NCBI GenBank assembly: GCA_049514515.1
Contig: JBEKUZ010000004.1
Span: forward strand, 15,321 to 79,320
DNA from: Thermodesulfobacteriota bacterium
GTDB lineage: Bacteria > Desulfobacterota > BSN033 > UBA1163
Direction: 5' to 3'
DNA: 64,000 bases
Under the pieces are notes generated by a model. The model worked only from the letters and a program-made list of their open reading frames with translations, was not told where the DNA came from and ran no database searches. A program made the translations under genes and the position numbers. Positions within the stretch are counted from its first letter, which is position 1. Each line of letters opens with the position of its first letter. Below, in pieces: positions 24,566 through 48,810 of this stretch.

Positions 24566-24647
24566 AGTTCAAAGTTCAGAGTTCGGAGATTTGGGTCAAT
24601 GGCCCCGAACTCCGAACTACTTACTCCGAACTTTAGTTGGTGAGAAC

Positions 24648-25865: not shown

Positions 25866-26320
25866 GGTCCGAGGAAAGATGTTTAAGAAGATGCAAATTA
25901 ATCCTGCAACAGTAACCACAGCGAAGATCGTCATTCCCGCCCCGATTTTCACCGGGATAAACTCCAACGGGAATCCAGACGTCGTCCCTGCGAAAGCAGG
26001 GAACCAGTTTTCAAATACTGGATTCCCCCGTGTCAAACACGGGGCAGGCTTAATCAAACCGGGAATAACAGAACGGCTAGGTCTTATATTGCCGTACATA
26101 AAAAATGATTTGGCAGCAGTGGCCTTCGATTTGCGCCGGATTTTATTGCCTCTGACCATTTGGTCATGCCATGCGTGGGTGGCCCCTACGTTCAGGTTGT
26201 ACCATGGTTTGGCAGCCGCACTTCACCCACAGGATGAGGCGCTAAAACCAAAATTCTTGAACGCAAATCCGAGATCCCAACCCAAGTTCGGGATGACAAA
26301 AAGAGAAGAAACGGACAGTC

Positions 26321-26425
26321 ATGTCATGCTGAACCCTGAAGGTGTCATGCCGAACTCTGAATGTGTTATGCCGAACGCCCAAAGTGTCATGCCGAACGCC
26401 CAAAGTGTCATGCCGAACTTGTTTC
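26321..26425 (+). repeat. Tandem 21-bp repeat array (GTGTCATGCCGAACGCCCAAA x about 5)
   Basis: Units at 26342, 26363, 26384 and 26405, with a degenerate copy at about 26321. Ends in the palindrome ATGCCGAA-cttg-TTCGGCAT. Lies about 100 bp upstream of the first pseudopilin gene. Confidence 0.8.
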
Positions 26426-26529
26426 GGCATCTCTCCAGGGCAGGCTTGTTTCAGCATTTGGTTCATTCTTTTCCCGCTGTCAGCAGACGCAGTATTAATA
26501 AACCTTCGGACCCTCGACCCCTTGAACCC

Positions 26530-26967
26530 GTGAACTCTTCGGGGTTCACCGTAATCGAACTCATCGTGGTCATAGTCATCATCGGAATTTTGGCTGCTAC
26601 TGTGCTGCCCAGGATCAATTTTGGCTCCGTCTCCTCTCAAACCTCCGTGGCCGGAGCAGCGAATATGGTCCGCTCCGACATCCGATATACCCAAGAATGC
26701 GCGATGGCCAGTCGGGTTTCTAAAGCTATCAGCTTCACGTCGGGCCAATCTTCATATACCTTCCCGGCGACCAACCCTTCTACCAGCAGTCTTGATCCTA
26801 CGGGACGACTTCAAGGAGCAGCGATTGGCACTACAGTCCAATTTACTTTTAATTCTCTTGGGGAACCAAGTACATCCTCCGTAGGGGTTTGGACAGTGAG
26901 TGTCTCTGACGGGGTAACGACAATACCAATTACTATAACCCAATATACAGGAGAGGTGGCTTATTGA
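26530..26967 (+). CDS. Prepilin-type N-terminal cleavage/methylation-domain protein (minor pilin/pseudopilin)
   Basis: GTG start giving (M)NSSG|FTVIELIVVIVIIGILAA. The track ORF from 25795 is rejected as a single protein. No clear RBS, so the start is uncertain. Confidence 0.55.
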   Translation: MNSSGFTVIELIVVIVIIGILAATVLPRINFGSVSSQTSVAGAANMVRSDIRYTQECAMASRVSKAISFTSGQSSYTFPATNPSTSSLDPTGRLQGAAIGTTVQFTFNSLGEPSTSSVGVWTVSVSDGVTTIPITITQYTGEVAY

Positions 26968-27094
26968 TTGCGGATATCGGAATGCGGATTTCAAAATAAA
27001 AATCAGTTTGTTTGATGCAAACAGGTAAGGATGGTTATGAAAAAGAAAGATCTAAATGAGAGAACAAGAAGCTTCATCCACTGTTTGTCGTACT

Positions 27095-27124
27095 GCGGAC
27101 ACGGAACACGGACACGGTCACGTT
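27095..27124 (+). promoter_or_regulatory. CACGGACACG motif copy immediately upstream of the pseudopilin start
   Basis: GCGGACACGGAACACGGACACGGTCACGTTATTTT-ATG. Related to 5681-5717 (reverse complement) and 53252-53300. Confidence 0.45.
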
Positions 27125-27129
27125 ATTTT

Positions 27130-27516
27130 ATGAATAGAAGGGGCTTCACACTTATTGAAATTATCGTCTTGATCGTGATGGCGGGTATCCTCATCTCCGC
27201 TATTGTCGTCCCTTTTACAACCGGCATTCGAACAAGTAATAAGCCTGAAATGGTAGCGACAGCCATGTACCTTGCGCACCAGAAGATGGAAGAATTGATG
27301 AAATTTAATTATTGCCAGGCACCCGATTTAACTCCTGGTACATATACACTGCCGGCGCCACCTATTGCTGGCTACACGTGGCAATGGGTGATTTCCTATG
27401 TGACCAATACTTTCGCTGCCTCAGGGTCGGATGTCGGTTATAAAATGATTCAGGTCACTGTAAAAGACCCACAAGGCAGTACTTATAATGTCTATTCGGT
27501 TATTACAAGATTTTAA
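27130..27516 (+). CDS. Prepilin-type minor pilin/pseudopilin
   Basis: MNRRG|FTLIEIIVLIVMAGILI. The start is trimmed from the track ORF (27031). Confidence 0.7.
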   Translation: MNRRGFTLIEIIVLIVMAGILISAIVVPFTTGIRTSNKPEMVATAMYLAHQKMEELMKFNYCQAPDLTPGTYTLPAPPIAGYTWQWVISYVTNTFAASGSDVGYKMIQVTVKDPQGSTYNVYSVITRF

Positions 27517-27540
27517 TAACGAGGGAAGAAACGCCAAGGC

Positions 27541-28128
27541 ATGACTAATTATCCCGAAATCCAAAATCCAAAATCCCCCTCACCCTCTCCCTCCCCCTCC
27601 AGGGGGGAGGGTTGGGGAGGCGATAGGGGTTTCACCCTAATAGAAATCATCGTTGTGATTGTCATTTTGTCTATTGTCTCGGTCATCACTATTAAGTTCT
27701 TGGTTGATAGTTTGAGAGTCTATACGATGACAGTCAATCAAAAGAGTCTTTTCGACGAAGGGAAATTAGCATTGGAACAGATGTGCAGAGGTATCCGGGA
27801 TGCAAATAGCATTACAGGAGTTACTGCCACTTCGATAACTTTTGTGAGAGACAATGCAACAGCTAACGATGCTGTAGGAGAAACAATTAGTTATCAACTC
27901 AACGCAGGTGTAGTCCAAAAAGTGAAAGCCGGCAACGGCTACGCAATGGCCAGAAACGCTACTACATTTGCCGTGACGAATGCTACAAATGAGATCCTTC
28001 TACAATTAACACTTCAATTGGCAAGCGGAGAGAATGTAACCCTGCAGACAAAGATTTATCCCAAAAACCTTGCAAAAAGTCTAACTTATAAGAGCTTCTA
28101 CTCAAACTGGATGGAGGCATACCAGTAG
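27541..28128 (+). CDS. Prepilin-type minor pilin/pseudopilin with extended leader
   Basis: ...RG|FTLIEIIVVIVILSIV. The 29-aa leader contains SPSPSPSPSRGEGWGG encoded by a palindromic mini-element (27574-27625). Confidence 0.7.
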   Translation: MTNYPEIQNPKSPSPSPSPSRGEGWGGDRGFTLIEIIVVIVILSIVSVITIKFLVDSLRVYTMTVNQKSLFDEGKLALEQMCRGIRDANSITGVTATSITFVRDNATANDAVGETISYQLNAGVVQKVKAGNGYAMARNATTFAVTNATNEILLQLTLQLASGENVTLQTKIYPKNLAKSLTYKSFYSNWMEAYQ

Positions 28129-29835
28129 GTGAAAAAGCTAAATTTAACCAACTTTCTATTTGGGGGCTACCATCCAAAATCGATGAAAATTGAAAATCCC
28201 CCTTCATCCCCCTTTGTTAAAGGGGGAATAACTACCCCTCCCTTTAGCAAAGGGAGGTTGGGAGGGATTTTCTTTCTAACAAATATCAAAGGAATCTCGG
28301 TGATCTTTCTGGTGATTGCCATGCTGCTGATGGTGACGATCGGATACGTTTTCTCTTATTTGATCCCCACAAAACAGAAATCCGTGGTCTTCCCTATCCA
28401 GTCCACCCAGGCTTTCTTCATCGCTCAATCCGGAGTCGAATTCGCTGTTCGCTATGCCAAGGATCAAAGTTGGACAACAAAGGCACAACTCGCCGGATTG
28501 ACCGGTATGACAAGGACTTTTGGAGCAGGAAGCTTTACTTTGACTTATACTAACACCGCTCCCAATCTTGATACCCTGACTTCTGTTGGATATGTCCCCG
28601 CCGGCACTGAAAGAAGGAGGATTGTTGTCTCCAATTTAACCAGTTTCTTGAACTACTTCGCCTACCATAAGACAATTACGGTACAGGCGGGGCAGGTAAG
28701 TGCTGGCCCCCTTACTAATTTTCCCATGCTTGTAAGTGTCACAGACCCTAATCTCGCAACCGTCGCAAGCGGCGGACATGTCGCGAGCTATAATGCCGGT
28801 ACCAACGATCCTTGGGACATTATCTTCGAAGGTCTGGACGACACCACTTGTGGGGGGGCCGGGACCTCACCCTGTAAGTTAAACCACGAAATTGAAGCCT
28901 ATGCTCCAGCGACGGGGACACTTGTTGCATGGGTCAGGGTTCCTTCTATTAATAACGGCACAGTCATTTACATGTATTATGGAAATGGCTGTATGACAGC
29001 TTCCACGCAGAGTGCGACAGGGGTCTGGGATGCTACCTACAAGGGGGTTTGGCATCTCAGTCAGAGTCCTACTGGCACAGCTCCCCAGATGAAAGATTCC
29101 ACGTCGAACGGATACAATGGGACGGCGAATGGAGGGTTTGTCGCCGGCGACCAACAAACAGCCAAGATCGATGGAGGTCTTGACTTCGAAAGCGCACATA
29201 ACGACTATGTACAGATAGCAGCGGCGGCCCTCGGCACCACTTCTGTAACTGTTTCTGCCTGGATTAAAGTCACGAGCTTCACCGAATATACATTCGGCGG
29301 TACCACTAACCCAAGCTTAGGTGCGGTTGTTTTCAGCACAAGGGACCTGGACGCGAACGTTTCCCCGACGCTTCTGGTATCAGCGGCAAGTAATGGTGGT
29401 GGATTTGGGGGCCCAACCTCCCTTGTGTTCTGTGACGACACTGCCAACGTTGCAGTAGGAGCAAAGGGCGCCACGACAATCGCAACTGGTACGTGGTACT
29501 ACGCTGTCGGTACGTTCAGCTATAACGCCGGCACTGCGACATATTTAGGCAACTGGAATGTGTACCGGAACGGCGTGCAGGACAACGCCGCGGCAAATAA
29601 CTTCGATTACGCGGGCACGGCCACCGTCCCCTTCAGTGGCGCATCGTGGATACTCGGAAATGACCCTCAGTGGACGACGGCGAACACAGATAGTAACGTC
29701 ATTCTCGACGAAGTTCGTGTATCAAACATCGCGCGTTCCGCCGGCTGGATCTTGACCGAATACAACAACCAGAGCACCCCCGGTAACCTGGGCGCCCCCG
29801 GTTTTTATGGCGTAGGGGCCGAGCAAAATAATTGA
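28129..29835 (+). CDS. Large pilus-associated protein: PilX-like N-terminal TM region + LamG/DUF2341-like jelly-roll C-terminal domain (MshQ-like)
   Basis: TM helix followed by AFFIAQSGVEFAVRYA (PilX_N-like). C-terminal lectin/LamG-like Gly/Thr/Asn-rich beta region. N-terminal 45 aa carry two copies of the CCCCCTTT..AAAGGGGG mini-hairpin. Confidence 0.55.
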   Translation: MKKLNLTNFLFGGYHPKSMKIENPPSSPFVKGGITTPPFSKGRLGGIFFLTNIKGISVIFLVIAMLLMVTIGYVFSYLIPTKQKSVVFPIQSTQAFFIAQSGVEFAVRYAKDQSWTTKAQLAGLTGMTRTFGAGSFTLTYTNTAPNLDTLTSVGYVPAGTERRRIVVSNLTSFLNYFAYHKTITVQAGQVSAGPLTNFPMLVSVTDPNLATVASGGHVASYNAGTNDPWDIIFEGLDDTTCGGAGTSPCKLNHEIEAYAPATGTLVAWVRVPSINNGTVIYMYYGNGCMTASTQSATGVWDATYKGVWHLSQSPTGTAPQMKDSTSNGYNGTANGGFVAGDQQTAKIDGGLDFESAHNDYVQIAAAALGTTSVTVSAWIKVTSFTEYTFGGTTNPSLGAVVFSTRDLDANVSPTLLVSAASNGGGFGGPTSLVFCDDTANVAVGAKGATTIATGTWYYAVGTFSYNAGTATYLGNWNVYRNGVQDNAAANNFDYAGTATVPFSGASWILGNDPQWTTANTDSNVILDEVRVSNIARSAGWILTEYNNQSTPGNLGAPGFYGVGAEQNN

Positions 29836-29861
29836 GGAGGAGGCTCCTTAAGGAGTTATAT

Positions 29862-31700
29862 ATGCCAGAAACAATCGGTTTGGATATTGGTTCTCATTCG
29901 ATTAAGTTAATTGGTCTCAAGACGACTTCCAAGGGACCTTTCTTGACATGTTTAGGGATGAAAGAAATTCCCCCTAACACTGACAAAGAGGATGTGAACG
30001 CTCTTTCCGGGATCCTCAGGGCCCTTATTACGGAAGTTGGTCTTAAAACGAAAAAGGTGAATTTAACTGTTTCAGGTTCAGGAGTTCAGGTCAAGCGAAT
30101 CTCCGTTCCTTCTCTCCCCAAAGCCGAATTAAAAGAGGCTGTTCGTTGGGAGATGAAGAATTACATCCCCTTCCCTGTTGAAACAGCGGAAATTGATTTC
30201 CACACCTTAAATGAATATGTTGAAGATAACGTTAAGAGATTAAATCTGATCGTTGTGGCTTGCCCGAAACAACTCATTGACCGCACTCTCTCCATCGCCG
30301 AGAATGCTGGGCTTCAACCGAATCATCTCGATGTAGCCCCCTTTTCCCTTTGGAATACTCTTTTGGTTTGGGATCAACTTAGGAAAGAAGAAACCATTGC
30401 TTTGATTGACCTTGGAGCTGAAAAAACCGGCATTTATCTTTTCAAGGATGGAATTTTGCAGTTCGCTCGAGAAGTCACTCCTGCCGGGACAGACATTACC
30501 AAAGCCGTTATGGAGGGAATCGGTTCTGAAGGAAAAACCAATGTCGTTTTTGAGCGAGCGGAAGAGATAAAGCAAGAAATGGGAATCCCTTCGGAGGCTT
30601 ACCAGGAGAAAGGTGGCGATAAATCCTTATCGAAAATGTCTTTTCTCGTCAGACCTGTGTTTGAGAGACTATCAGCAGAGATAGGACGATCTCTTGACTA
30701 TTACAGGAGCCAATTTAATGAAGAACGGATTGATAAGCTGCTCCTGACCGGCGGAGGCGCCAACCTGAAGAATTTGGTTTCCTATCTCGCAAGCGAGGTT
30801 CGATTGCCCGTGGAGCATTTTAATCCGCTTAGCGATATCCTTTTCGATCCAAGAAGGATCGGCACTCAATTTCTTAACCAGATGGGTTCGCTTTTCGCCG
30901 TCGCGATAGGCGTAGCCCTCCCTGAACCCAAACGAATCGAGTTGCTCCCGGTTGTAGAACCATTTTTATCGAAGGCTCAATTAGTGAAGTCCTTTCCTGT
31001 CCTGGCCCCTGGAATCGCATTGCTTGTCTTTTTAGGAGTCGCCTTATATATGAACGCACAGGTGAACGCAATAAGAAGAGAAATAGATATGAAGAAGGCG
31101 AAGCTGGCGGTTCTGGATGCCCGTCAGGAAAAACTAAAAATGTTAAAAGAGAAAGATATCCAGCTCAAGGAAAAGCTTTCTCAATTCCCATCTTCAATGA
31201 TCGTTCCCGTTCCCTATCGAGACATCTTGAGAGAGGTGAGTCAAATTATCCCGGACAACGTCACCTTGACTCTTCTTGCAGTTCAAAATAAGGGGAAACC
31301 TCTGACGAAAGGAACTCCGCCCCCAAAGCCACAGGAAGGAGAATCCCCCAAAGGCGTGGGGAGAGAACTTCATATAACAGGTGTCGTTTTCGGAAGCGAT
31401 CTTCGCTGCCTCACAGCCTTAGCCCAGATCATCGAGCGGCTCGAGAAAACACCCTTGTTTAATAATACAAGACTGGTTTCAGCCGATGAGAACAAACTCT
31501 ATACTCAATCAGGAGCAGAATTTGGCATCGTCTGCGACATCAATCCTAATAATCCCCCCTCTCTCCCCGACACCTCCTTCTCCCCCCTTTACAAAAGGGG
31601 GGGAGGGGGGATTACTGACACCTCTTCCTCCCTTTACAAAGGCGGGGAAGGGGGAATTACTAAAAGGGAGATAACAGAATTAAGAAAGGAAAAACAATAG
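29862..31700 (+). CDS. PilM-PilN fusion protein (MshI-like)
   Basis: N-terminal actin-like PilM ATPase fold (IGLDIGSHSIKLIGL...). After about residue 350 there is a TM helix plus a PilN-like coiled-coil periplasmic domain. C-terminal tail encoded by a duplicated ~48-bp palindromic unit. Confidence 0.85.
   Translation: MPETIGLDIGSHSIKLIGLKTTSKGPFLTCLGMKEIPPNTDKEDVNALSGILRALITEVGLKTKKVNLTVSGSGVQVKRISVPSLPKAELKEAVRWEMKNYIPFPVETAEIDFHTLNEYVEDNVKRLNLIVVACPKQLIDRTLSIAENAGLQPNHLDVAPFSLWNTLLVWDQLRKEETIALIDLGAEKTGIYLFKDGILQFAREVTPAGTDITKAVMEGIGSEGKTNVVFERAEEIKQEMGIPSEAYQEKGGDKSLSKMSFLVRPVFERLSAEIGRSLDYYRSQFNEERIDKLLLTGGGANLKNLVSYLASEVRLPVEHFNPLSDILFDPRRIGTQFLNQMGSLFAVAIGVALPEPKRIELLPVVEPFLSKAQLVKSFPVLAPGIALLVFLGVALYMNAQVNAIRREIDMKKAKLAVLDARQEKLKMLKEKDIQLKEKLSQFPSSMIVPVPYRDILREVSQIIPDNVTLTLLAVQNKGKPLTKGTPPPKPQEGESPKGVGRELHITGVVFGSDLRCLTALAQIIERLEKTPLFNNTRLVSADENKLYTQSGAEFGIVCDINPNNPPSLPDTSFSPLYKRGGGGITDTSSSLYKGGEGGITKREITELRKEKQ
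31553..31672. repeat. Tandem pair of ~48-bp GC-rich hairpin units (…CCCCCCCTTTACAAAAGGGGGGG…)
   Basis: GACACCTCCTTCTCCCCCCCTTTACAAAAGGGGGGGAGGGGGGATTACT followed by GACACCTCTTCCTCCCTTTACAAAGGCGGGGAAGGGGGAATTACT. In-frame at the C-terminus of the PilM-N fusion gene. Confidence 0.75.
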
Positions 31701-31703
31701 ACC

Positions 31704-32270
31704 ATGGTACTGAAAAGCAGAGAAAAAATATTGATCATCTTGGCCGTCATTGCTATTGCCTTTTGGGCCTTCGTCACCTTTTACTACGCGCCGCAGAGTC
31801 GCAAAATGAAGGCGTTGGAGGCAGACCTCAAAGCGGCTGATCTCAGATCTGAAGAATCCCAGCTGGTGACGAAAGGGGTAGAAACGTTAGAGGCCGAAAT
31901 CCTTCGTCAGGAGGATGCGCTAAAAAGACTAAGCGAACGAACCCTGAGAGGCGAAGAATTCAGAACCTTCCTAAGACACTTAGCCAGGGAAAGCGACTCC
32001 CCTGAGATGAAGGTGATCTCTCTGATCCCTCAAGAAGAAAATCTTCCGCCTCCCGAGGGGCAGAAGGAACGTCCTGCTCCTCAATACAGGAGGGTAACTG
32101 TTCAGATGGTTCTTCACTCAACCTTTGGGAAGCTGGAGACCTATTTAAAAGGGATTGAACAACTTCCTTTTCTCATCAATGTGGACAATATCCAGATGGA
32201 AAGGATCGAAGAGGTTCAGCCCTTTTCAAAGGTCACCATAGGGTTAAGTATGTATGTTACTTCACAATAG
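31704..32270 (+). CDS. pilO: Type IV pilus assembly protein PilO (MshJ-like)
   Basis: N-terminal TM helix, coiled coil, ~190 aa, directly downstream of the pilM-N fusion. Confidence 0.7.
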   Translation: MVLKSREKILIILAVIAIAFWAFVTFYYAPQSRKMKALEADLKAADLRSEESQLVTKGVETLEAEILRQEDALKRLSERTLRGEEFRTFLRHLARESDSPEMKVISLIPQEENLPPPEGQKERPAPQYRRVTVQMVLHSTFGKLETYLKGIEQLPFLINVDNIQMERIEEVQPFSKVTIGLSMYVTSQ

Positions 32271-32365
32271 AAGATCGGGCGGCCTCGGAGGGCCGCCCCT
32301 ACAGACGTTAGAACCAAGTAGGGGAGTCCCTCTGCGGGCTCCCAACCCTTGAAGGAGAAAATTCC

Positions 32366-32971
32366 GTGAGACAACATCGAAAAATAATTATGGCTACGGT
32401 CTTCATCACCTTTTTCATTTTTGCCGGAATCGACCTGCTGCACCCGATCCGGGCAAACGGACAGGCCAAAGAGAGGACAATTTCCCCTCAAGAAAGTAGG
32501 AGGGATCCATTCCTCCTCCCTTCGGACGTCCATCTCCTTTCGAAGATCGGATTGTCTCCAGGAATGAAGGGAGTTTTCCCAAAAACGGAAACGGATGCGC
32601 CGGTCAAGGCCATTTTAATCGGCGACCGCATTCGATTGGCATTGATCGATCATCATATTGTTACCGTAGGAGATTCGATCCATGGCGAAAAGGTTTTAGA
32701 GATTAAAACAGACCGAGTCATTTTAGGAAAAGGAGAGCAAAAGAAAACCCTTCTTTTGCCTCAAAGCCCCGTTCCATTAACCGTTGAAGAGAAACCCCAC
32801 CTTTCTCCTCCCCCGCAAAAGGGGGAGCGAACCCCGTTAGAAATTCCAGTCGGTGCGACTCGAAACCGAGCGGTGAGCCAAACCCCGCCGGAGGGACCTC
32901 ATCCCGCAGCAGAGCAGGGGGCTATCCTTTCTAACGAGGTGAAGGAGGGAGTTAAAGGAGATGAACGATGA
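32366..32971 (+). CDS. PilP-like pilus assembly protein (MshK-like)
   Basis: N-terminal TM/signal anchor, RDPF motif, beta-rich C-terminal region. GTG start with AAGGAGA RBS. In-frame mini-hairpin at 32798-32832. Confidence 0.55.
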   Translation: MRQHRKIIMATVFITFFIFAGIDLLHPIRANGQAKERTISPQESRRDPFLLPSDVHLLSKIGLSPGMKGVFPKTETDAPVKAILIGDRIRLALIDHHIVTVGDSIHGEKVLEIKTDRVILGKGEQKKTLLLPQSPVPLTVEEKPHLSPPPQKGERTPLEIPVGATRNRAVSQTPPEGPHPAAEQGAILSNEVKEGVKGDER

Positions 32972-34689
32972 AAACGAAGACCCTCTTTATGCTCTATCTC
33001 ATTCCATTGCTGGTCCTGGGATGCGCTACTCTCCCGAATAAGGAGCGTGCCAAGTTACCTCCCCAAAAGGCGGAGGCTGTAAGACCTCAACCTCCTCCTG
33101 AAGAAAAATTGAAAGAACTGATGATCCCCCAAATGGAGGAGGCGAAAAAGGTGCCCGAAAAGCTCTTCTCCATCTACGCGAGGGATTCGAGTATCCAGGA
33201 TGTCCTTCTGGCCTTTTCAAAGGAGAGCGACCTCAACATTGTCATCGATCCCCAGTTGAGCGGCAAAGTAACCGTGGATTTAAAGCGCGTCACCTTAAAA
33301 GAAGCCTTGGATACCGTTCTCTCTCCGCTCGGCTGGACTTATCGAACCGATGGAAAATTCATCAAAGTATTAAGGCCTGAGGTCGAGACCCGTTTCTTCA
33401 CACTGAATTATATGGCCACGAAACGGAGCGGAAAAAGGGAGGTCTATGCCACCACCAGCACAACGCAAGCCCAACAAACGAGTACGAGCACTACCATTTC
33501 GGGCATTTCAGGCGTTTCAGGCCTTCCGGATCAGCAGACTACCTACAATCCAGTGGCAGGGGCAAGAACCGGGTATACTGGCGTCGTCAGTGAGGATGAC
33601 GTGGATTTGTGGAAGGAAATTCGAAAAGGATTAGAGGCTCTCATCTTTGGATTCGTTGAAGAGAAGGGAAAAGAGGGGACTTCTTCCGAGAAAGAAAAAG
33701 TGACCTGGACCAGAGTGGACGAAACAGGGAAGAGGTTGGCGATCAACAAATCGACAGGGGTGATCATGGTTACCGATTACCCTGTCAATTTGAATAGGGT
33801 CGCCTGCTACATTGAGACTGTAGAGGCAAGTTCCCAGAGGCAGGTCAGCATCGAGGCAAAAATCATGGAGGTAACTCTCTCCGATAGTCACCAAGAAGGG
33901 ATTAACTGGAAAGTGATCGAAGGGCTTCCTAGTTCCACTAACTTAGCTTGGGGACTTACAGATAAAACAGGGAAGACCGGGTTTCCAGGTGGAACGAGTG
34001 GTTTCCTTAACAGTACCGGGACAGGGGGGACAACAACGACGACAACCAGCCAGATTCTCACCCCCGGTATTTTTAAAGTCATGCCTTACGGAGGCCTTTT
34101 CGCGCTCGGTGCGGCAGGGTCGCAAGTAGCCCTCTCAGATATCATGCAGGCGATCGCACAACAGGGGGATGTGAAGGTTCTCTCCAGTCCGACCATCTCA
34201 ACTCTCAATAATCAGAAAGCGATTATCCGAGTTGGAAATCAGAGTGTCTTCTTTATTACCGGGGCGGTGGCTACACAAACGACTGTGACCCAGTTCATTC
34301 AACCCATGACCATTGATATTGGGATCATCCTGGATGTGACTCCCCAAATTGCCGAAGATGGCACCATCATCATGAACATTCATCCCAGTATCACCGCCCA
34401 GACCGGGAGTGTGACGGCACCCGATGGAAAGTCAACTTTTCCCCTCCTGAGCGTGAGGGAGACCGACACAACAGTGAGGGTCAGAGACGGCCAGACGATT
34501 ATCATTGGTGGCCTGATGCAGGAGCAGACTGAGGAGGATTATACCGGCGTTCCTGTCTTGCAGTCCCTTCCGGTAATGGGCCCTCTGTTCCGATTCAAGA
34601 GCCGAACAAAAACGAAATCGGAACTGGTGATCATGATCACCCCTACCCTTCAACTGGGTAAAAAGGTGGAAGACTTCGCAAAACAATAA
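32968..34689 (+). CDS. pilQ: Type IV pilus secretin (PilQ/MshL family)
   Basis: Lipoprotein signal (LLVLGC). C-terminal secretin domain (VLSSPTISTLNNQKAIIRVG...VPVLQSLPVMGPLFRFKS). Confidence 0.9.
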   Translation: MKTKTLFMLYLIPLLVLGCATLPNKERAKLPPQKAEAVRPQPPPEEKLKELMIPQMEEAKKVPEKLFSIYARDSSIQDVLLAFSKESDLNIVIDPQLSGKVTVDLKRVTLKEALDTVLSPLGWTYRTDGKFIKVLRPEVETRFFTLNYMATKRSGKREVYATTSTTQAQQTSTSTTISGISGVSGLPDQQTTYNPVAGARTGYTGVVSEDDVDLWKEIRKGLEALIFGFVEEKGKEGTSSEKEKVTWTRVDETGKRLAINKSTGVIMVTDYPVNLNRVACYIETVEASSQRQVSIEAKIMEVTLSDSHQEGINWKVIEGLPSSTNLAWGLTDKTGKTGFPGGTSGFLNSTGTGGTTTTTTSQILTPGIFKVMPYGGLFALGAAGSQVALSDIMQAIAQQGDVKVLSSPTISTLNNQKAIIRVGNQSVFFITGAVATQTTVTQFIQPMTIDIGIILDVTPQIAEDGTIIMNIHPSITAQTGSVTAPDGKSTFPLLSVRETDTTVRVRDGQTIIIGGLMQEQTEEDYTGVPVLQSLPVMGPLFRFKSRTKTKSELVIMITPTLQLGKKVEDFAKQ

Positions 34690-34694
34690 GAGGC

Positions 34695-34760
34695 AAGGGG
34701 TCGAGGGGTCGAACCACCCAAACTTGAACCCTGGAATCCTTAGAATCCTCGAACCCTTTT
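34695..34760. repeat. GGGGTCGAGGGGTCGAACC...CTTGAACCCTGGAATCC repeat-family copy
   Basis: Shares CTTGAACCC / GGAATCCT / GGGGTCGAG blocks with 26500-26545 and 59636-59780. Confidence 0.6.
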
Positions 34761-34770
34761 GGAGAAAACC

Positions 34771-35880
34771 ATGTACCAAAGATTTTATAGTCTGAGAGAA
34801 AAACCATTTGTCCTGACCCCTGACCCTCAATTTCTCTTCTTAAGCGAGGGCCATCGTACCGCGATCGAATCTCTTCTTTACGGGATTCGGCAGAAGGAAG
34901 GGTTTATGGTCATTACCGGAGATATCGGAACCGGGAAGACAACCATCTGCCGGGCCCTCTTGGAGAGATTGGATAAAAACGTGAAGACGGCGGTCATCTT
35001 CAATTCCTTCCTCACCGAAGAAGAATTGTTGGAAGCGATTCTCCGCGATTTCGGATTCTCTTCAAAGGGAAGGACCAAGAAGGAGCGGATCGATGCGCTG
35101 AACAAAATACTCATCTACTTCTTGTCCCACGGAAAGAATGCCGTCCTGATCATCGACGAGGCCCAGAATTTATCCATCCCTGTCCTGGAGCAGATTCGCA
35201 TGCTCTCCAATTTGGAGACGGAAAAGGAGAAATTGTTTCAGATCATATTATTTGGCCAGTTAGAGCTGGACCAAAAACTCCGGTCCGCCGAATTGAAACA
35301 ATTGAACCAACGGATCGCCATCCGGCATTACCTCCAGCCCCTCACCCAAACGGAAATGGAGTCTTATATTTACCAGCGTCTAATGATGGCAGGCTCTCAG
35401 GGGAGCATAACCTTTTCAAGATCTGCTCTCCACGAGATCTACAGATTTTCGAGAGGGGCGCCCAGGCTGATCAACCTTCTCTGCGATCGAGCCCTATTGG
35501 CCGGTTTCATCCAACAGACCCATTATTTCGACAAAGAAATTATCAAGCTGGCGAAGGACAGCCTTTTGGGAGAGGAAGCAGTCCCAAAGCCATTCTATTC
35601 TTTTCCCTTGCCAAGAAATTTAAGCTCGTTACGCATCCCGTTCTTGACGATTTTCCTTTTCTTAATGGCGGGTATGATCTCAACAAGCCAAGGCCATTTT
35701 CCTTCGCATCAAGATGCAAAGAATGCTATTGGGGGAAGAGTTCAAGGCATCTATTCTCGGATATCGGAATCTATTCCTCCTTCTATTCCTGCCCTTCCAC
35801 TGGATAAGGAACGGTTTCAAAATTCTGCAAAAGAGCCTTTCGAGAATCCAGAAAGGGCATCCCAGGAGGTTTCAAAATGA
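34771..35880 (+). CDS. ExeA/GspA-like AAA ATPase (MshM-like)
   Basis: Walker A GDIGTGKTT. IDEAQNL Walker B/sensor region. Overlaps the next gene by ATGA. Confidence 0.85.
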   Translation: MYQRFYSLREKPFVLTPDPQFLFLSEGHRTAIESLLYGIRQKEGFMVITGDIGTGKTTICRALLERLDKNVKTAVIFNSFLTEEELLEAILRDFGFSSKGRTKKERIDALNKILIYFLSHGKNAVLIIDEAQNLSIPVLEQIRMLSNLETEKEKLFQIILFGQLELDQKLRSAELKQLNQRIAIRHYLQPLTQTEMESYIYQRLMMAGSQGSITFSRSALHEIYRFSRGAPRLINLLCDRALLAGFIQQTHYFDKEIIKLAKDSLLGEEAVPKPFYSFPLPRNLSSLRIPFLTIFLFLMAGMISTSQGHFPSHQDAKNAIGGRVQGIYSRISESIPPSIPALPLDKERFQNSAKEPFENPERASQEVSK

Positions 35881-37127
35881 GCCTGATCATCGATGCCCTC
35901 AAAAGGGCACAACAGCTTCGATTGAGCGGGGCCGAGGAGTCTCCAACCTTGAACTATCCATACCCGAAGAGAAAAACGGGGAGGAGGTCTAAAAAACAAT
36001 GGATTCCCGTCGGCGCGGGTCTCATCGGCCTCTGTATCGTTCTACTCGTTCTTTTGCGACCTGCCTCTTCACCCTTGGCCACCCAAACCAATCGAGCCAT
36101 CGTTCCCGTGGAGAGGGAGCCTTCTGTTTCTGTAGCGGAGAAGATGCCTTCAGAGCCTCCGAAGGAAGTGGTGGGTGCGGCAAAGGATGAAGAACCGCTG
36201 TCTGCTGGATCTTCAGCCAAAGGCGATCGCCCGCAGGCGAGCCAGACCCTGAAGCCCGTCAACAGCAGGACTGAATCGGGGAAGGCAATAAATCCCGGCC
36301 ACGGTGGGAGTGGTTCGGGGCAAGCACGCCCTCAGGTATCCCTCAACGCTGGGGCGCCCCTCAGCGAGCACCCCTCTTATCCCCAAGAAGAGAAGAAGTC
36401 AGTTGAAACGGCGACATCTTCCACTGGAAAAAAGGGAGGACCGTTGAAAAAACAGGCACCCCCTCCTCTCGCCGCTCAGAAAGAAAATAAGCCCCTTAAG
36501 TCTATCGGGGTAGAACAGGAAGGCGGAAAGGCCGGCGCATTGGCCTCGGATGTCCTCACTCATTTCAATTCAGGGGTGACTTTCTATAACCAGAGAGAAT
36601 TTTCAAGAGCAATCCAGGCCTACCAGAAGGTTATCGAGCTGGATCCGACCTATGTCGAGGCCTATAACAATCTGGGGATCATCTATCAAACGATCGGGGA
36701 TGTGGACAGGGCCTTCGGAGCTTACCAGAAAGCAACGGAGATCAATCCAAGGTATGATAAAGGATATAATAATCTTGGGATCCTCCTTTTGCTCAAGGGC
36801 CGTGACGAAGAGGCGCTGGAGGATTTCCAAAAAGCTCTGGCCATCAATCCTAAGAATATCGAAAGTTTTATTAACCTCGGGACCCTTTTTAAGAAAAAAG
36901 GCCAGTGGGATGAGGCGATTGAGTCGTATCAGAAGGCTCTGGCGATTGATCGCCTCCACAGGGAGACGCACTACAATATGGCGCTGCTTTATGAACAAAT
37001 GGAGAAGTTAGAATTGGCGATCAGCCATTATCAACAATTTATCCGGCTCTCCTCGAGATCCGATCCGGAATTGGTCTCGCGGGTGCAAAGACATTTAAAC
37101 GATTTAATGAAGGCGAAAAATAGGTAA
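35877..37127 (+). CDS. TPR-repeat protein (MshN-like)
   Basis: N-terminal TM anchor, Pro/Ser-rich linker, then about 5 TPR repeats (AYNNLGIIYQ..., GYNNLGILLL...). Confidence 0.75.
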   Translation: MSLIIDALKRAQQLRLSGAEESPTLNYPYPKRKTGRRSKKQWIPVGAGLIGLCIVLLVLLRPASSPLATQTNRAIVPVEREPSVSVAEKMPSEPPKEVVGAAKDEEPLSAGSSAKGDRPQASQTLKPVNSRTESGKAINPGHGGSGSGQARPQVSLNAGAPLSEHPSYPQEEKKSVETATSSTGKKGGPLKKQAPPPLAAQKENKPLKSIGVEQEGGKAGALASDVLTHFNSGVTFYNQREFSRAIQAYQKVIELDPTYVEAYNNLGIIYQTIGDVDRAFGAYQKATEINPRYDKGYNNLGILLLLKGRDEEALEDFQKALAINPKNIESFINLGTLFKKKGQWDEAIESYQKALAIDRLHRETHYNMALLYEQMEKLELAISHYQQFIRLSSRSDPELVSRVQRHLNDLMKAKNR

Positions 37128-37210
37128 CGCATGAAAATCAGAAATCCCCCGGTAGGCAGGGGAGGATTGGGAAGTAGATTTTCTGGGTAATTGATCTTTG
37201 GAGGTATTCT

Positions 37211-38938
37211 ATGGCCGAGGAGAAAAAAAGTTTTGGAGATTTTCTGGTGAGATTGGGGGTCCTCAGCGCTGATCAGTTGAGAACAGCCTCCCAGGAACAG
37301 AAACAGAGAGGCGAACGCCTGGAACAGACCATCGTCCGGCTGGGTTATGCTAAAGAAGAGGTGATCCTGCAGGGCTTGGCCGATTATTTTAATCTCCCCT
37401 ATGTCGATCTCGACACCTATCTAATTGATGAGAATATCGTAAAAACCATCCCCGAAGACCTGGCGCGGCGCCATACATTAATCCCTCTCTTTAAGATCGG
37501 AAACACGTTGACGGTCGCCATGCCCGATCCCCTTAATCTCCTTGCATTGGATGAGGTGAGGAACAAGGTGAAGAACGACGTGGAGATAGCCATCGGCACC
37601 GAAAAAAAGATTAAAAAAGCGATTGAACAACACTACGGAGCCGCAGCCACGGTCTTTGAAAGTACCCTCCAGCAAATGGCACAGGGCAGCGTAGGCGGGC
37701 TGCCCCAGGAATCTACAGACTACAGAAAAACGCATGACCTCATTGCCAAAGACGTTCGGCCAGGAGCGATGGAAGATGCTTCTGCTGCCCGGGTGCTCGA
37801 TTTGGTCATGATTCAAGCCATTCGAGATCGGGCCAGCGATATTCATTTCGAACCCGACGAAAAGAACCTACGGGTCCGGTTACGAATTGACGGCTTTTTA
37901 TATGAATCTCTAACCCTCCCTAAGCCAATCCAGCCGGCCATCACTTCGAGGATTAAAATCCTGGCTGAGATGGATATTGCGGAGACGAGGCTTCCCCAGG
38001 ACGGAAATTTCAATGTCAAAATGGAGAAACGGGGTTTTGAAATCCGGGTCTCAACGTTTCCTACGATCTACGGTGAAAACGTGGTGCTTCGAATTCTTGA
38101 CCAGACCAGCCCCCTTTTCAAGCTGGATGATTTGGGGTTTTCCGGAGAGATGCTAAAACAATTCAAGCAACTGGTTCGAAAAACGAACGGGATCATCCTG
38201 GTCACCGGACCGACAGGCAGTGGGAAAACAACCACCCTCTACGGCCTCTTAAACATGATCAATTCGAAGGATAAAAACATTATCACCATAGAGGACCCTG
38301 TGGAGTACCGGTTGGCTCTGATCAGACAGACACAGATCAATCCCAAAGCAGGAATTAGCTTTGCCACGGGATTGAGGTCTATTCTCAGGCAGGACCCTGA
38401 TATCATCATGATCGGAGAGATCAGGGACCTGGAGACCTCAGAGATTGCGATGCAGGCAGCCCTGACAGGCCATCTGGTATTGAGCACGCTACATACGAAT
38501 GACGCGCCAGAGGCGATCTCCCGACTGATGGATATCGGCGTGGAGCCCTACCTCATCTCATCCTGTGTCATCGGGGTTTTAGCACAACGTCTGGTCCGGA
38601 CCATCTGTCCGGATTGCAAGGCGTCTTATCAGATTGACACGAAGGGCACGAGTGATCTTGGCGCTGACGTCTCGAAATCAAAAGGACCGTTAACCCTCTA
38701 TCGGGGGAAGGGCTGCAAAAATTGCAAACAGTCCGGATTCCGGGGAAGAACCGGGATCTTCGAGCTTCTCTTGGTCAATGACGAGATTAAGAAGCTTATT
38801 TCCGAAAGAGCTTCGGTCCAGGTGATTCGAGAGGTAGCGAAGAAGACGGCAGGAATGGTTCCCTTGAGAGAGGACGGCCTGGAAAAGGTTCTAAAAGGAA
38901 TTACCACCCTTAAAGAAGTGGATCGGGTGGCTTACTAA
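37211..38938 (+). CDS. pilB: Type IV pilus assembly ATPase PilB/GspE family (MshE-like)
   Basis: N-terminal T2SSE_N domain, Walker A GPTGSGKTTT, Asp/His boxes, C-terminal tetracysteine motif (CPDC...CKNC). Confidence 0.95.
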   Translation: MAEEKKSFGDFLVRLGVLSADQLRTASQEQKQRGERLEQTIVRLGYAKEEVILQGLADYFNLPYVDLDTYLIDENIVKTIPEDLARRHTLIPLFKIGNTLTVAMPDPLNLLALDEVRNKVKNDVEIAIGTEKKIKKAIEQHYGAAATVFESTLQQMAQGSVGGLPQESTDYRKTHDLIAKDVRPGAMEDASAARVLDLVMIQAIRDRASDIHFEPDEKNLRVRLRIDGFLYESLTLPKPIQPAITSRIKILAEMDIAETRLPQDGNFNVKMEKRGFEIRVSTFPTIYGENVVLRILDQTSPLFKLDDLGFSGEMLKQFKQLVRKTNGIILVTGPTGSGKTTTLYGLLNMINSKDKNIITIEDPVEYRLALIRQTQINPKAGISFATGLRSILRQDPDIIMIGEIRDLETSEIAMQAALTGHLVLSTLHTNDAPEAISRLMDIGVEPYLISSCVIGVLAQRLVRTICPDCKASYQIDTKGTSDLGADVSKSKGPLTLYRGKGCKNCKQSGFRGRTGIFELLLVNDEIKKLISERASVQVIREVAKKTAGMVPLREDGLEKVLKGITTLKEVDRVAY

Positions 38939-41570
38939 CGACGGCCCTTTTGCGTCGCCCGACCCATCCCAGACCAACACAACCTAAAATTCCCAGGATG
39001 GTTGCTCCAATACCCAACTTAAAACTCAAGGGATCATAAACAAATTCTACCTGATGTGTCCCGACACTCAGAGGAATTGCTCTGAATGTATAATCGGCCC
39101 TATATATTTTGGTTTCTTTCCCATCCACGAAAGCCTTCCACCCCGGATAGTAAGTATCGCTCAATACCAGCAGGCAATCTTTGGGAGCCTTCACCTGAAG
39201 GTCTAACCGGTTATTGCTCTCCGTCAAGATTTGGGCCTTCTGAGGGAGCCCACTGAGCGGCTCCCCTACATCATTCGTTCTTCGTAGGGGCGGCCCTCTG
39301 CGGCCGCTCTGGCTTGGGGTGGCTTCTTCCCCCTTTGCAAAAGGAACGGCGTGGGAACTTATCCATTTGGGTTCTTCTTCAAGAAAAACCTCCTGACCCG
39401 GACGAAATTCATTCTGGAGCATCATCAAAAGCATTTTTTGTAAGTCCATCACTTTGAAGTCTTTTACAAGCCATGCTCTCGGAAGAGGGCTGCGATTTTT
39501 ATATAGCTTTATGGTATTCTCTTTAAGGAGATCTTCCCTCTTTCCCTGAAGCCCTTCAAGGTTTGCATAAATCAACTCAAATTTATGGTTTTTCTCAAGA
39601 AGAGTAACAGAGGTAATATATTTCACACCGTAAAGATCTATGAGTTGCGTTGCTGAAATAGAAGGAGTACTGACAAAAATTCTATAAAGATCATCCGTTC
39701 GTTTTACTCGAATGACGTCAGCTCCCCAAAGGTCATGTAACTGATACAGGAGATTCATAGAAGGATAATGTTTTTCCTTCAATGTATTAAGAAATGAAGG
39801 GTCTCCAACCAAAATTGTAGCGTCTTGCGAAATAGTTTTGGCAGTTGAAAATACTCTAAAAAAGCCTTTGTCCGAAGAAATTGTTTTCAATATTTCAGTC
39901 TTTTGAAAATAGTCCGACGCTTTTTCTTTCCAGTAGTAGCCCATATTACCAAACAGGTCTGTTATCAGGAAAAGGATCAATAGAAGTTTTGTCCAACCCT
40001 TCCATTTCTTCTCGTAGCCGGTCCTTAGCAAGAGAAAGAAAAGAGCCAAGTAGAAGAAAAATCTTTTCGTATGGAAAAGGTTTGCAGAGAGATAATTGAA
40101 TTGCGGAAAATCAATCTCTCTTAGTTTCAAATATTGTTCAATACTTCTATGGCCTAAAGCCAGAAATAAAAGGAGTAGACCACTGATGAGAGAAAGCGTT
40201 GTGAGAAGGTTTTTAATTCTCTTCCCTCCACCCTCTTTTGAGAGATCGAACAACCGCTGAAACCCCATGCCTGCTGTAACAGAGAGGAGGAGAATAAAAA
40301 TATAGAGAAATTTTGCAGGATACCGGATTCCATTGAAAAATGGAATGTACTTAAAAACAAAAGGGTAGAGAGGATTGTAAGCGCCTAACGATAGAAAGAT
40401 CGAGAAGATCATGAGAATGAGAAAGAGCATCTTGTTGTCTTGGTGCGCTTCCGTTCGATCCTTTTCTTCAGAGGATAAGGTGCGGCGATGGGGCATGAGA
40501 AAGAAGATCAAGCTCAGTATAAAGGGAAGTCCTCCCGTATAGAGCGTTTTGAACCAGCATTGAACGGTCCAATATTTTTTCATATCTAAAAAATATCCAT
40601 AGGCATCGGGAAGAAAGAATAGAAGAATATCCTTGGGCGCAAAACTCCATGTGGTTGCTTCTTGATAGGAAATTCCATTTCCCCTGATAGAGTGATGAAA
40701 CAATTCGACAAAAGGGAATAATTGAACTGCGGAGAGAAACAAAAAGAGAATGGAAATAACCAAGAGACTTCTTATTCGTCCCCAATAAATGGGGGCGCTA
40801 CGGACGAATTTGGAAATGGAAAGGCTAAAAGGGGATTTGTGGCGTCGGGGTTTATCCCCGACAGAGTTGGCATATGGAAAGGGGGAGAAAATCACCATGA
40901 TTAAGAGAACAAAAAAATTACCATAGACAATTTCTATCCCTCCGCCCAAAAAAGAAATAGTGATCAGAATAGCCGTAAAAATCTCATTTTTTAAACCCCG
41001 TCCGTTGATCGCCCTTCTGAAAAACATCATGATCAAAGGCGTCCAGATACTCGAAAGGAGAATGGTCAGCAAACTATGGACGGAAAGGAGATACCCGCTG
41101 AGCATAAATGTCAGGCCCGAGATAAGGGAACCTGTTGCATTTATCTTAAAGTCTCTAAGGAGAAGGTAGGTGAATAATCCGCCCAAGAAGAAATGAAGAA
41201 TGATGATGGCATTAAAGGCCACATCGAAGGGGAGAAGAAAAAAAAGACCATTTAAGGGATAAAGGAGGGCATGCTGGGGGTTAGCAAAGAAGGGTTGGCC
41301 GGAGAATTGATAGGGATTCCATAAAGGGAAACTTCCATGCTTGATGCTTTCGACCCAGAAGAATCGCGGTGGAATGAAATAAGGACCTAAATCCCTTTCT
41401 ATGAGCAGAAACCTTTTCTCAAGGAGGTCATAAAAAAAGAACAGGGATAAAAAGAAAAGGGCCAGAACAGCCAAGAAATCCGGTGATCTGACCCATCCTA
41501 TTTTTTCTCTAATCTTTTCAATCACAAGGAGGCTGGTTTTACTGTATTCCTTCCTTATAAATCTCAACAA
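38910..41570 (-). CDS. YfhO-family polytopic membrane protein (GT-C-like putative glycosyltransferase)
   Basis: N-terminal region with GPYF...LWNPYQFSGQPFFANPQ..LYP, typical of YfhO. More than 12 TM helices plus a C-terminal periplasmic domain. The track start at 41570 is TTG without an SD, so the exact start is uncertain. Confidence 0.65.
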   Translation of the reverse strand: MLRFIRKEYSKTSLLVIEKIREKIGWVRSPDFLAVLALFFLSLFFFYDLLEKRFLLIERDLGPYFIPPRFFWVESIKHGSFPLWNPYQFSGQPFFANPQHALLYPLNGLFFLLPFDVAFNAIIILHFFLGGLFTYLLLRDFKINATGSLISGLTFMLSGYLLSVHSLLTILLSSIWTPLIMMFFRRAINGRGLKNEIFTAILITISFLGGGIEIVYGNFFVLLIMVIFSPFPYANSVGDKPRRHKSPFSLSISKFVRSAPIYWGRIRSLLVISILFLFLSAVQLFPFVELFHHSIRGNGISYQEATTWSFAPKDILLFFLPDAYGYFLDMKKYWTVQCWFKTLYTGGLPFILSLIFFLMPHRRTLSSEEKDRTEAHQDNKMLFLILMIFSIFLSLGAYNPLYPFVFKYIPFFNGIRYPAKFLYIFILLLSVTAGMGFQRLFDLSKEGGGKRIKNLLTTLSLISGLLLLFLALGHRSIEQYLKLREIDFPQFNYLSANLFHTKRFFFYLALFFLLLRTGYEKKWKGWTKLLLILFLITDLFGNMGYYWKEKASDYFQKTEILKTISSDKGFFRVFSTAKTISQDATILVGDPSFLNTLKEKHYPSMNLLYQLHDLWGADVIRVKRTDDLYRIFVSTPSISATQLIDLYGVKYITSVTLLEKNHKFELIYANLEGLQGKREDLLKENTIKLYKNRSPLPRAWLVKDFKVMDLQKMLLMMLQNEFRPGQEVFLEEEPKWISSHAVPFAKGEEATPSQSGRRGPPLRRTNDVGEPLSGLPQKAQILTESNNRLDLQVKAPKDCLLVLSDTYYPGWKAFVDGKETKIYRADYTFRAIPLSVGTHQVEFVYDPLSFKLGIGATILGILGCVGLGWVGRRKRAVVSKPPDPLL

Positions 41571-41618: not shown

Positions 41619-41664
41619 CCAATAAACACCCTTTCCTTCTCTCCGTTGAGAGAAAGGAAAGGGT
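41619..41664 (-). terminator. Intrinsic terminator after pilin gene 1
   Basis: Minus strand: CACCCTTTCCTTTCTCTC-aacgg-AGAGAAGGAAAGGGTG followed by TTTATT. Confidence 0.6.
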
Positions 41665-41703
41665 GAGGAGAACATTTTGGATATAAGTTTGCCTATCCCT
41701 CTA

Positions 41704-42169: not shown

Positions 42170-42216
42170 CAATAAACACACCCTTTCTTTCTCTCCGTTA
42201 AGGGAAAGGAAAGGGT
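42170..42216 (-). terminator. Intrinsic terminator after pilin gene 2 (duplicate of the 41619-41664 terminator)
   Basis: Same long GC-rich hairpin plus TGTGTTTATT on the minus strand. Confidence 0.6.
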
Positions 42217-42255
42217 GAGGAGAACATTTTGGATATAAGTTTGCCTATCCCTCTA

Positions 42256-44041: not shown

Positions 44042-44103
44042 TTTAATGTGTTCTCAAAGTTCGTCTTTGCTTTGTTGCCTTCAATCATTTTAGGTTTCAT
44101 AAC

Positions 44104-45030: not shown

Positions 45031-45130
45031 GCTAAGATTTGGTTAGTACGGCCAAATGCGTTAGTTCTAAGGAAATCGGACTGCCATCCGATCTTCTTAT
45101 TCCTTCCGACGAGCGTTAATCCATAATAGC

Positions 45131-46922: not shown

Positions 46923-47039
46923 CCCTCACTAAACTCTTAGGAAATAAGAGACCTCCTTATGATTTCATCCCATTCCGGTATGTTGGAGTGCACTCACCCC
47001 TATGTGCTACGGTGATATTTTCCGTAATGGGCTTCATTT

Positions 47040-47618: not shown

Positions 47619-47728
47619 CTTATCCCTCCATTAACCTCTCGTCCATCCCCTCTCCTCTGCCTGGAAGGCAGGGAAAACAGCCCACCCGTTTGGGCAATGG
47701 TCACGGTGACGAGGCCCGTTTCGGACAA

Positions 47729-48695: not shown

Positions 48696-48725
48696 ACACG
48701 TGACGGACGATAAATGATGAACAGT

Positions 48726-48810
48726 GCGTCTTCTCTTTTGTTCACTGCCTATAGTCTATTGCCCACGGTTCATTGTTCATCGCCCATTGTTCATGGTTGA
48801 TCGTTCGAAA
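48726..48810. promoter_or_regulatory. Second array of GTTCATCG-type repeats upstream of yqeC
   Basis: CGATAAATGATGAACAGTG; TTGTTCACTG; CGGTTCATTGTTCATCGCCCATTGTTCATGGTTGATCGTTCG; also CGTGACAAACACGTGAC. Confidence 0.55.

Follow-up and report, generated by a model that had tools for sequence, protein, structure and literature searches.

A gene for a YfhO-like protein, located directly downstream of two type IV pilin genes in a 64-kb stretch of DNA from a Thermodesulfobacteriota bacterium (the whole stretch is hereafter called the window), probably encodes an inner-membrane glycosyltransferase of the GT-C type that is dedicated to the pilins encoded upstream of it. To this reading we give a probability of about 0.6. 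The analysis establishes the family of the protein, its fold, its conserved residues, the order of the genes around it and the conservation of this order; from there we infer the activity, the donor, the acceptor and the site of attachment. Statements on donor genes and on gene neighbourhood in this organism are confined to the window. Glycosylation of pilins alters the surface chemistry of the pilus, its recognition by phages and predators, and aggregation, and to our knowledge it has so far been explained by two types of enzyme, both studied in few pathogens. An earlier note on this DNA had proposed the gene as a candidate pilin glycosyltransferase, and as a candidate function this is supported at the level of sequence by a conserved linkage to pilin genes, by the GT-C fold, and by a family 2 glycosyltransferase (GT2) encoded next to the gene in relatives.

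The YfhO-like gene is an uninterrupted open reading frame (ORF) on the minus strand, which starts with a TTG codon at position 41570, ends at 38910, and corresponds to 886 amino acid residues (aa). An identical public protein, P0001, which is found on 28 contigs, has 871 aa and starts at an in-frame GTG codon at position 41525, and the alignments of homologues likewise begin there. Because of these two agreements, GTG 41525 is probably the true start. Thus, the 886-aa gene of the earlier note is intact as a reading frame, while its probable product has 871 aa. The Pfam family YfhO (PF09586) matches the protein with 70 bits and an E-value of 2e-19, against a gathering score of 28.5, which bears out the family membership that had been claimed. 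The match is made of two stretches, of which the C-terminal one is the best. At E ≤ 0.01, no Pfam family besides PF09586 matches the protein; neither Wzy_C nor TPR was found. All listed homologues bear PF09586, and several of them are named 'YfhO family protein' by NCBI. More than 800 homologues came from each word-indexed search, and an exhaustive search gave 51,513 cluster representatives at E ≤ 1e-3, of which 3,152 reached E ≤ 1e-30; with so many homologues, the ORF is a real gene and not a chance one. The NCBIfam families PgfM1 and PgfM2 gave weak matches (E 5e-6), restricted to the C-terminal 80 residues and far under the cut-offs, and were therefore not used to assign membership.

The structure of the protein was modelled with AlphaFold from an alignment of 96 sequences with identities down to 23%, which gave a pLDDT of 89.6 and a pTM of 0.91. 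This alignment replaced a shallower one of 64 homologues (68-94% identity), with which the pLDDT was 47.8. When the model was compared with the PDB using Foldseek, the significant matches were restricted to GT-C enzymes, namely AftD, PglB, the yeast and archaeal oligosaccharyltransferases, AftA and Pmt4, with E-values from 6e-9 to 3e-3. As modelled, the YfhO-like protein has a GT-C fold, in agreement with the earlier note. No solved sequence relative emerged from a profile search of PDB sequences, which returned nothing but spurious matches to designed helical proteins. Judged from the helices of the model and from hydropathy, the protein can be described as composed of about 13 to 14 membrane helices, with N- and C-terminal tails rich in Lys and Arg; the C-terminal tail has the sequence RRKR. 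A domain of about 300 residues (530-830), predicted to be periplasmic, is located between the last two helices, the final transmembrane helix being segment 833-863. In the model this domain is a mixture of helices and strands, and its C-terminal part is rich in strands.

Over the 96 sequences, residues D45, W69, G76, Y89, P90, P163, P271, R281, G331, Y636 and W796 are invariant (871-aa numbering, in which D45 corresponds to D60 of the 886-aa ORF), and the protein of the window keeps every one of them. D45 is part of an R-D motif, about 15 residues past the first helix, in the first predicted periplasmic loop. GT-C enzymes have a catalytic acidic residue placed in the first outside loop, and D45, placed by its sequence position, would sit where these enzymes keep their catalytic Asp.

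The YfhO-like gene is the last of three head-to-tail genes on the minus strand, in the order pilin 2, pilin 1 and YfhO. The two pilins, which are identical at 104 of 123 residues, both have the N_methyl prepilin motif according to Pfam. The mechanical ORF of pilin 1 begins with TTG at 42099, and the ATG at 42075 is preceded by the ribosome-binding site GGAAAGGAG. At its 3′ end the YfhO-like gene meets the convergent gene for a PilB/MshE-type ATPase, and the two overlap by 29 bp. The earlier note had described the gene as lying between pilB and the pilin genes; the position is correct, but the gene closes the minus-strand pilin-pilin-yfhO unit and is outside the plus-strand operon.

The linkage between the YfhO gene and the pilins was followed in relatives. 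A scan of species-representative genomes gave 78 loci, onto which the pilus proteins of the window were mapped by tblastn, and in which the prepilin motif was sought in all frames. Loci were taken as informative when they had enough upstream DNA (YfhO query) or downstream DNA (pilin query). For relatives with at least 50% identity, which are metagenome-assembled genomes (MAGs) of Thermodesulfobacteriota/Syntrophaceae and Nitrospirota, the YfhO gene of each of the 36 informative loci is directly preceded, within 1.7 kb and in the same orientation, by one to four prepilin genes in tandem. The chance level is about 0.03 expected per such upstream interval, as calculated from 43 prepilin-motif matches elsewhere in 1.12 Mb. 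In these close relatives the convergent pilB cluster follows the YfhO gene wherever the contig extends that far. Among distant relatives (26-34% identity), 19 of 29 informative loci are linked to pilins. The order in Omnitrophota is mshE-pilC-pilin-YfhO-minor pilins-pilMN-pilO on a single strand, and the layout is similar in Syntrophorhabdus, in Planctomycetia and in one Elusimicrobiota MAG. A neighbour-joining tree groups the linked genes into two large clades, with small groups (L053/L058 and L047) nested among unlinked branches; ten unlinked YfhO genes are on basal branches, L003 being linked. The unlinked genes adjoin genes for GT1/GT4, Wzy_C-TPR and PMT_2 proteins and have no pilus genes nearby. 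For the converse test, a metagenome scan with pilin 2 gave 12 contigs with pilins of at least 52% identity, and a YfhO gene is located downstream of the pilin in all 8 contigs with enough downstream DNA. The co-occurrence that the earlier note had suggested checking is therefore found, and the lack of a neighbourhood association, which it had named as a contrary outcome, did not occur within the clade of the window gene.

Alignment of 87 pilins encoded upstream of YfhO genes gave a median mature length of 121 aa. Past residue 30, these pilins are rich in Thr (16%), Ala and Gly. Cysteine is absent from 70 of them, so that these have no disulphide loop of the kind that type IVa pilins usually have. 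Mature position 59, just after the long N-terminal helix, is Ser or Thr in 81 of the 87 sequences and is usually preceded by Gly or Asn, while positions 60, 61 and 62 are Ser or Thr in 32, 15 and 54 sequences, respectively. We take Thr 59 to correspond in position to Ser63 of Neisseria PilE, the PglL site. At the C-terminus there is a Trp in 82 of the 87 pilins, and the penultimate residue is Thr or Ser in 66. The segment NVTTTT(E/Q)DWTG, which was reported in the earlier note, is present in both pilins of the window; its Thr cluster may be exposed, as was assumed there. Remote pilins with at most 38% identity (loci L093, L095 and L097) end in GSW and have neither the G-T motif nor a YfhO gene nearby. 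These are tandem 109-aa proteins (4381-5345 in L093) that have no pilus assembly genes nearby and are surrounded by genes for UvrB, a histidine kinase, an amidase and CopCD. This small sample gives a slight preference to position 59, rather than the C-terminus, as the feature associated with the enzyme.

A possible source of the sugar donor is encoded in relatives. In L116, a 72%-identical relative, genes for a methyltransferase and a 228-aa GT2 are located between the YfhO gene and pilB (12646-14046, the GT2 gene being at 13360-14046). By tblastn, 20 of about 38 informative close relatives have this GT2 directly downstream of the YfhO gene, in most cases with the methyltransferase before it, and five Omnitrophota loci have a 33%-identical GT2 in the same position. 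Loci with a methyltransferase and GT2 after the YfhO gene are L116, L004, L007, L008, L013, L015-L018, L020, L021, L023, L026-L028, L031 and L034-L037, together with L048, L055, L057, L065 and L074. The closest solved relatives of the GT2, matched over the whole catalytic domain, are the Pyrococcus dolichol-phosphate mannose synthase (E 3e-18) and ArnC (E 6e-15). Its best NCBIfam matches are AglJ, PpgS, a dolichyl-phosphate hexose transferase, ArnC and PgfS, all under the equivalog cut-offs. Judged by these similarities, the GT2 is of the polyprenyl-phosphate-monosaccharide-synthase type, which is the known partner type of YfhO enzymes, and the methyltransferase beside it hints at a methylated sugar. 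In L114, from a clade with 37% identity, the YfhO gene is followed by genes for radical-SAM, PMT_2, GT2 and Wzy_C-TPR proteins. Some pilin-YfhO loci add a second GT-C protein (PMT_2) with a GT2 of its own (L116, 4142-7055; L114, 13910-18517; L046, 3375-5168), and in one of them genes for a radical-SAM/B12 protein and a Wzy_C-TPR protein are present as well, a sign that those organisms may build pilin glycans in several steps or in alternative forms.

By analogy with the CsbB/YfhO, GtrB/PgtC2 and PgfS/PgfM1 pairs, a mechanism can be drawn in which a cytoplasmic GT2 would load a single sugar onto polyprenyl (undecaprenyl) phosphate, and the lipid-linked sugar would be flipped to the periplasmic face of the membrane. 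There the YfhO-like enzyme, via its invariant first-loop Asp, would move the sugar to the hydroxyl of a pilin Ser or Thr, at a stage when the inner membrane still anchors the pilin and the MSHA-like machinery has yet to assemble it. The likeliest acceptor would be the conserved Thr at mature position 59, where the N-terminal helix ends and the TTTT cluster begins; the alternative would be the conserved penultimate Thr before the C-terminal Trp. In relatives that bear the methyltransferase, the sugar would perhaps be methylated. Somewhat less firmly, we lean to the view that the pilin-YfhO unit, with or without methyltransferase and GT2, represents a third class of systems devoted to pilin O-glycosylation, one with a broad phylogenetic range, whose sequence family has no relation to that of TfpO/PglL and whose architecture is unlike that of TfpW. 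It would serve the MSHA-like pili of uncultured Thermodesulfobacteriota, Nitrospirota, Omnitrophota, Planctomycetota and Elusimicrobiota, by placing a single, possibly methylated sugar on the Thr that ends the N-terminal helix.

The following observations weigh against a dedicated pilin glycosyltransferase. The dense TTTT cluster behind the earlier idea is not conserved, and since only its first residue, mature T59, is conserved among the 87 pilins, the cluster was rejected as a conserved acceptor. The C-terminal [ST]-W is weakened as a YfhO-specific signature by the remote GSW pilins, which have no YfhO neighbour. The synteny among close relatives is partly inherited, so that these loci are not independent. 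In the window, a Pfam analysis of about 45 ORFs found no gene for a GT2 donor synthase, a flippase or sugar-nucleotide synthesis, and tblastn of the window with the GT2, methyltransferase, PMT_2, radical-SAM and Wzy_C proteins of relatives gave nothing below E 0.1. The closest relatives (L001, L002, L009, L019 and L045) also have no GT2 at this site.

An explanation that we consider unlikely is that the protein is an active GT-C enzyme whose main acceptor is not the major pilin, and is instead a minor pilin, the LamG/DUF2341 tip protein, many periplasmic proteins (in a system of general O-glycosylation, as for PglL of Neisseria), or a surface polysaccharide or lipid that is produced along with the pilus. 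Characterised YfhO proteins do act on teichoic acids (PMC5836110) or on many membrane proteins. In the wider family, members without a pilin linkage have GT1/GT4, Wzy_C-TPR and PMT_2 genes as neighbours. The Omnitrophota gene is located between major and minor pilin genes, and position alone cannot separate these two acceptors. However, in two operon layouts and several phyla the YfhO gene is always directly downstream of one or more genes of the major-pilin type, no polysaccharide export or polymerase genes are found alongside it in the window, and the linked pilins share the conserved Thr 59.

Less probable still is a decoupled remnant, in which the adjacent GT2, with the methyltransferase, was lost and the enzyme of this organism is inactive or uses the donor of an unrelated pathway. 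About half of the close relatives have GT2 and methyltransferase genes between YfhO and pilB, while here the YfhO gene overlaps pilB and the 64 kb hold no GT2 homologue. Set against this are the intact ORF, with its full complement of invariant residues, and the arrangement without GT2 itself, which is common to about 16 species-level relatives with full-length YfhO genes and argues for continued selection. The donor synthase may also be encoded elsewhere in the genome; donor synthases of the ArnC or GtrB type are commonly encoded away from their partner. A non-catalytic membrane accessory of the pilus, such as a pilin chaperone or stabiliser that keeps the GT-C scaffold alone, has a precedent in pilin-adjacent proteins of the TfpY/TfpZ class, some of which are not glycosyltransferases (PMC11841053), but it is very improbable, as a scaffold would be expected neither to keep the first-loop Asp and the periplasmic-face residues invariant down to 23% identity nor to be paired repeatedly with a GT2 of the polyprenyl-phosphate-sugar-synthase type.

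The features of the locus and its surroundings are summarized in Table 1.

Table 1 Features of the pilin-YfhO locus and of the DNA around it, with positions in the window.
Feature	Position	Strand	Basis or description
PAS histidine kinase and response-regulator/histidine-kinase/GGDEF hybrid	19754-24190		upstream of pilC
MSHA-like type IV pilus cluster, rest	24591..37127	plus	Pfam/NCBIfam
Over-extended ORF (390 aa) of a minor pilin	25795-26967		prepilin motif at residue 247; real start near 26530
LamG/DUF2341 protein, 568 aa	28129-29835		after three minor pilin genes, before PilM-PilN fusion
PilM-PilN fusion protein, 622 aa	29832-31700		
PilB/MshE-type pilus extension ATPase	37211..38938	plus	T2SSE and N-terminal MshEN (c-di-GMP-binding) domains
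YfhO-family GT-C glycosyltransferase gene (predicted)	38910..41570	minus	ORF, Pfam, homologues, model
Long G+C-rich hairpin, then TTTATT	41627..41665	minus	CACCCTTTCCTTTC...GAAGGAAAGGGTG; between pilin 1 and YfhO-like gene
Pilin gene 1, 123 aa	41704..42075	minus	prepilin signal MLRHQRG|FTLIEL; mature T59-T62 = TTTT; C-terminus HTTW
Near-identical hairpin and TTTATT after pilin 2	42179..42217	minus	copied together with pilin gene
Pilin gene 2, 123 aa	42256..42627	minus	tandem duplicate of pilin 1
Low-GC insertion	42970-45787		between pilin operon and xdhC-like gene
Molybdenum-cofactor-related genes flanking the locus	45846-50281 and 58958-60991		xdhC-like, yqeC, MobA-like nucleotidyltransferase, mobB, moeA

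Each pilin gene of the window is followed by a long hairpin. Folding of the 111-nt segment with the hairpin next to the YfhO-like gene gave -37.3 kcal/mol (z -3.5), and that of the segment with the hairpin after pilin 2 gave -33.6 kcal/mol (z -2.4). The first of these probably acts as a partial terminator, so that less transcription reads through into the YfhO-like gene, and the post-pilin hairpins would thereby hold the level of the enzyme low relative to that of pilin. A scan for promoter and terminator consensus sequences was uninformative, with 11 promoter-like matches against 7.5 ± 2.4 expected and 7 terminator-like matches against 5.0 ± 2.2; it missed both long hairpins, which were folded directly. 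The pilin gene and its terminator hairpin duplicate in tandem as one unit, the window having two copies and relatives having between one and four (tandem duplications in L005, L012, L017, L030 and L075), which points to frequent changes in copy number or to antigenic diversification of the major pilin. In many relatives, including L001, L005, L009, L017 and L116, the pilin gene nearest to the YfhO gene is of a second paralogue type (RG-TT-TYTMR...). These paralogues are 63-74% identical to each other and differ from the duplicated pilins of the major type farther upstream.

The plus-strand cluster (24591-38938), which is closed by pilB, includes genes for PilC, three minor pilins, the LamG/DUF2341 protein, the PilM-PilN fusion, PilO-like and GspC-like proteins, an MshL-like secretin, an MshM/ExeA-like AAA ATPase and a TPR protein. 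We call it MSHA-like because the domains are present but the NCBIfam equivalog scores are just under their cut-offs (224 against 250 for MshL and 620 against 676 for PilB). The best NCBIfam match of the AAA protein is the XrtA/PEP-CTERM-associated ATPase, with a score of 298 against a cut-off of 324.5. The LamG/DUF2341 protein is possibly a component of the tip or an adhesin, similar to MshQ. Since a GGDEF hybrid is encoded near pilC and the PilB ATPase has an MshEN domain, cyclic di-GMP (c-di-GMP) probably controls the pilus. On the other side of the locus, the low-GC insertion (0.37-0.41, against about 0.48) encodes an IS1595-family transposase, a HEPN-domain protein and a 218-aa protein without a family match. 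In relatives, the distance between xdhC and the first pilin gene ranges from a few hundred bases to about 1 kb. The adjacency of xdhC and pilin genes is kept in relatives, with no obvious functional link.

If the protein is a pilin glycosyltransferase, dedicated pilin glycosylation would have arisen on at least three occasions, each time from a different lipid-linked-sugar transferase, and the YfhO family, known from Gram-positive cell walls, would have a protein-modifying branch in diderms. The pili of abundant anaerobes of sediment and peat, such as Syntrophales-like bacteria and Omnitrophota, would then probably be sugar-coated, which would bear on how their adhesion and proposed roles in cell-cell contact are read. 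The system of pilin, YfhO and GT2 is small and could be rebuilt in E. coli, where it might serve as a compact tool for O-glycosylation.

Among known systems, TfpW of Pseudomonas aeruginosa group IV (Pa5196/PA7) is comparable in several respects. It is a polytopic GT-C pilin D-arabinofuranosyltransferase of 646 aa, encoded directly after the major pilin gene. It has 11 predicted transmembrane helices, an acidic motif in periplasmic loop 1 that is essential, and a periplasmic TPR domain at its C-terminus; it uses a polyprenyl-phosphate-linked sugar, modifies Thr/Ser residues that come soon after the N-terminal helix (Thr64/66 of Pa5196 PilA), and needs D-arabinofuranose (D-Araf) genes of the DprE1/DprE2 type (10.1101/2020.04.19.049825). 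The gene of the window is likewise directly downstream of a major pilin gene and of the GT-C type, and its proposed acceptor, Thr 59, just beyond the N-terminal helix, would match Thr64/66 in position. However, going by the published description of TfpW, the protein of the window is set apart by its length of 871-886 aa, its approximately 13-14 helices, a periplasmic domain of mixed helices and strands that is followed by one further transmembrane helix, a Pfam match to YfhO alone, and the lack of a TPR domain. D-Araf genes of the DprE1/DprE2 type are absent from the window. TfpO (PilO) of P. aeruginosa group I is also encoded by a pilin-linked gene, and it carries out periplasmic transfer from a lipid carrier to the C-terminal Ser of the pilin (10.1101/2020.04.19.049825). 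TfpO and PglL are Wzy_C proteins that move preassembled oligosaccharides from undecaprenyl diphosphate, whereas the protein of the window has no Wzy_C domain and has a predicted GT-C fold.

Within the YfhO family, the streptococcal proteins PgtC2 (with GtrB) and PgfM1 (with PgfS) are O-glycosyltransferases that act on Ser/Thr-rich extracytoplasmic segments of proteins, so the proposed chemistry has a precedent. They share the Pfam family and the pairing of a GT-C protein with a GT2 that makes an undecaprenyl-phosphate monosaccharide, the GT2 being found here in relatives, where it weakly matches PgfS, the partner of PgfM1. Unlike the protein of the window, to which their sequence similarity is very low, PgtC2 and PgfM1 are Gram-positive proteins that have no link to pili and modify many membrane proteins or adhesins with disordered Ser/Thr tails; the acceptor proposed here is a small folded pilin in the periplasm of a diderm. 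The founders of PF09586, Bacillus subtilis CsbB-YfhO and Listeria Lmo1079, modify teichoic acids with GlcNAc and are co-transcribed with a GT2 (PMC5836110). B. subtilis YfhO has about 13 transmembrane helices, the last two of which flank a large outside domain (PMC5836110), a layout that is shared by the protein of the window with its approximately 13-14 helices and its domain of about 300 aa. Teichoic acid, the acceptor of CsbB-YfhO, is not expected in organisms with the locus of the window, judging from their phyla. A search of the open-access literature for a connection between YfhO and pilins or type IV pili retrieved no paper that describes one. What appears to be new here is a branch of the YfhO family that is built into the type IV pilus operons of diderm, mostly uncultured phyla.

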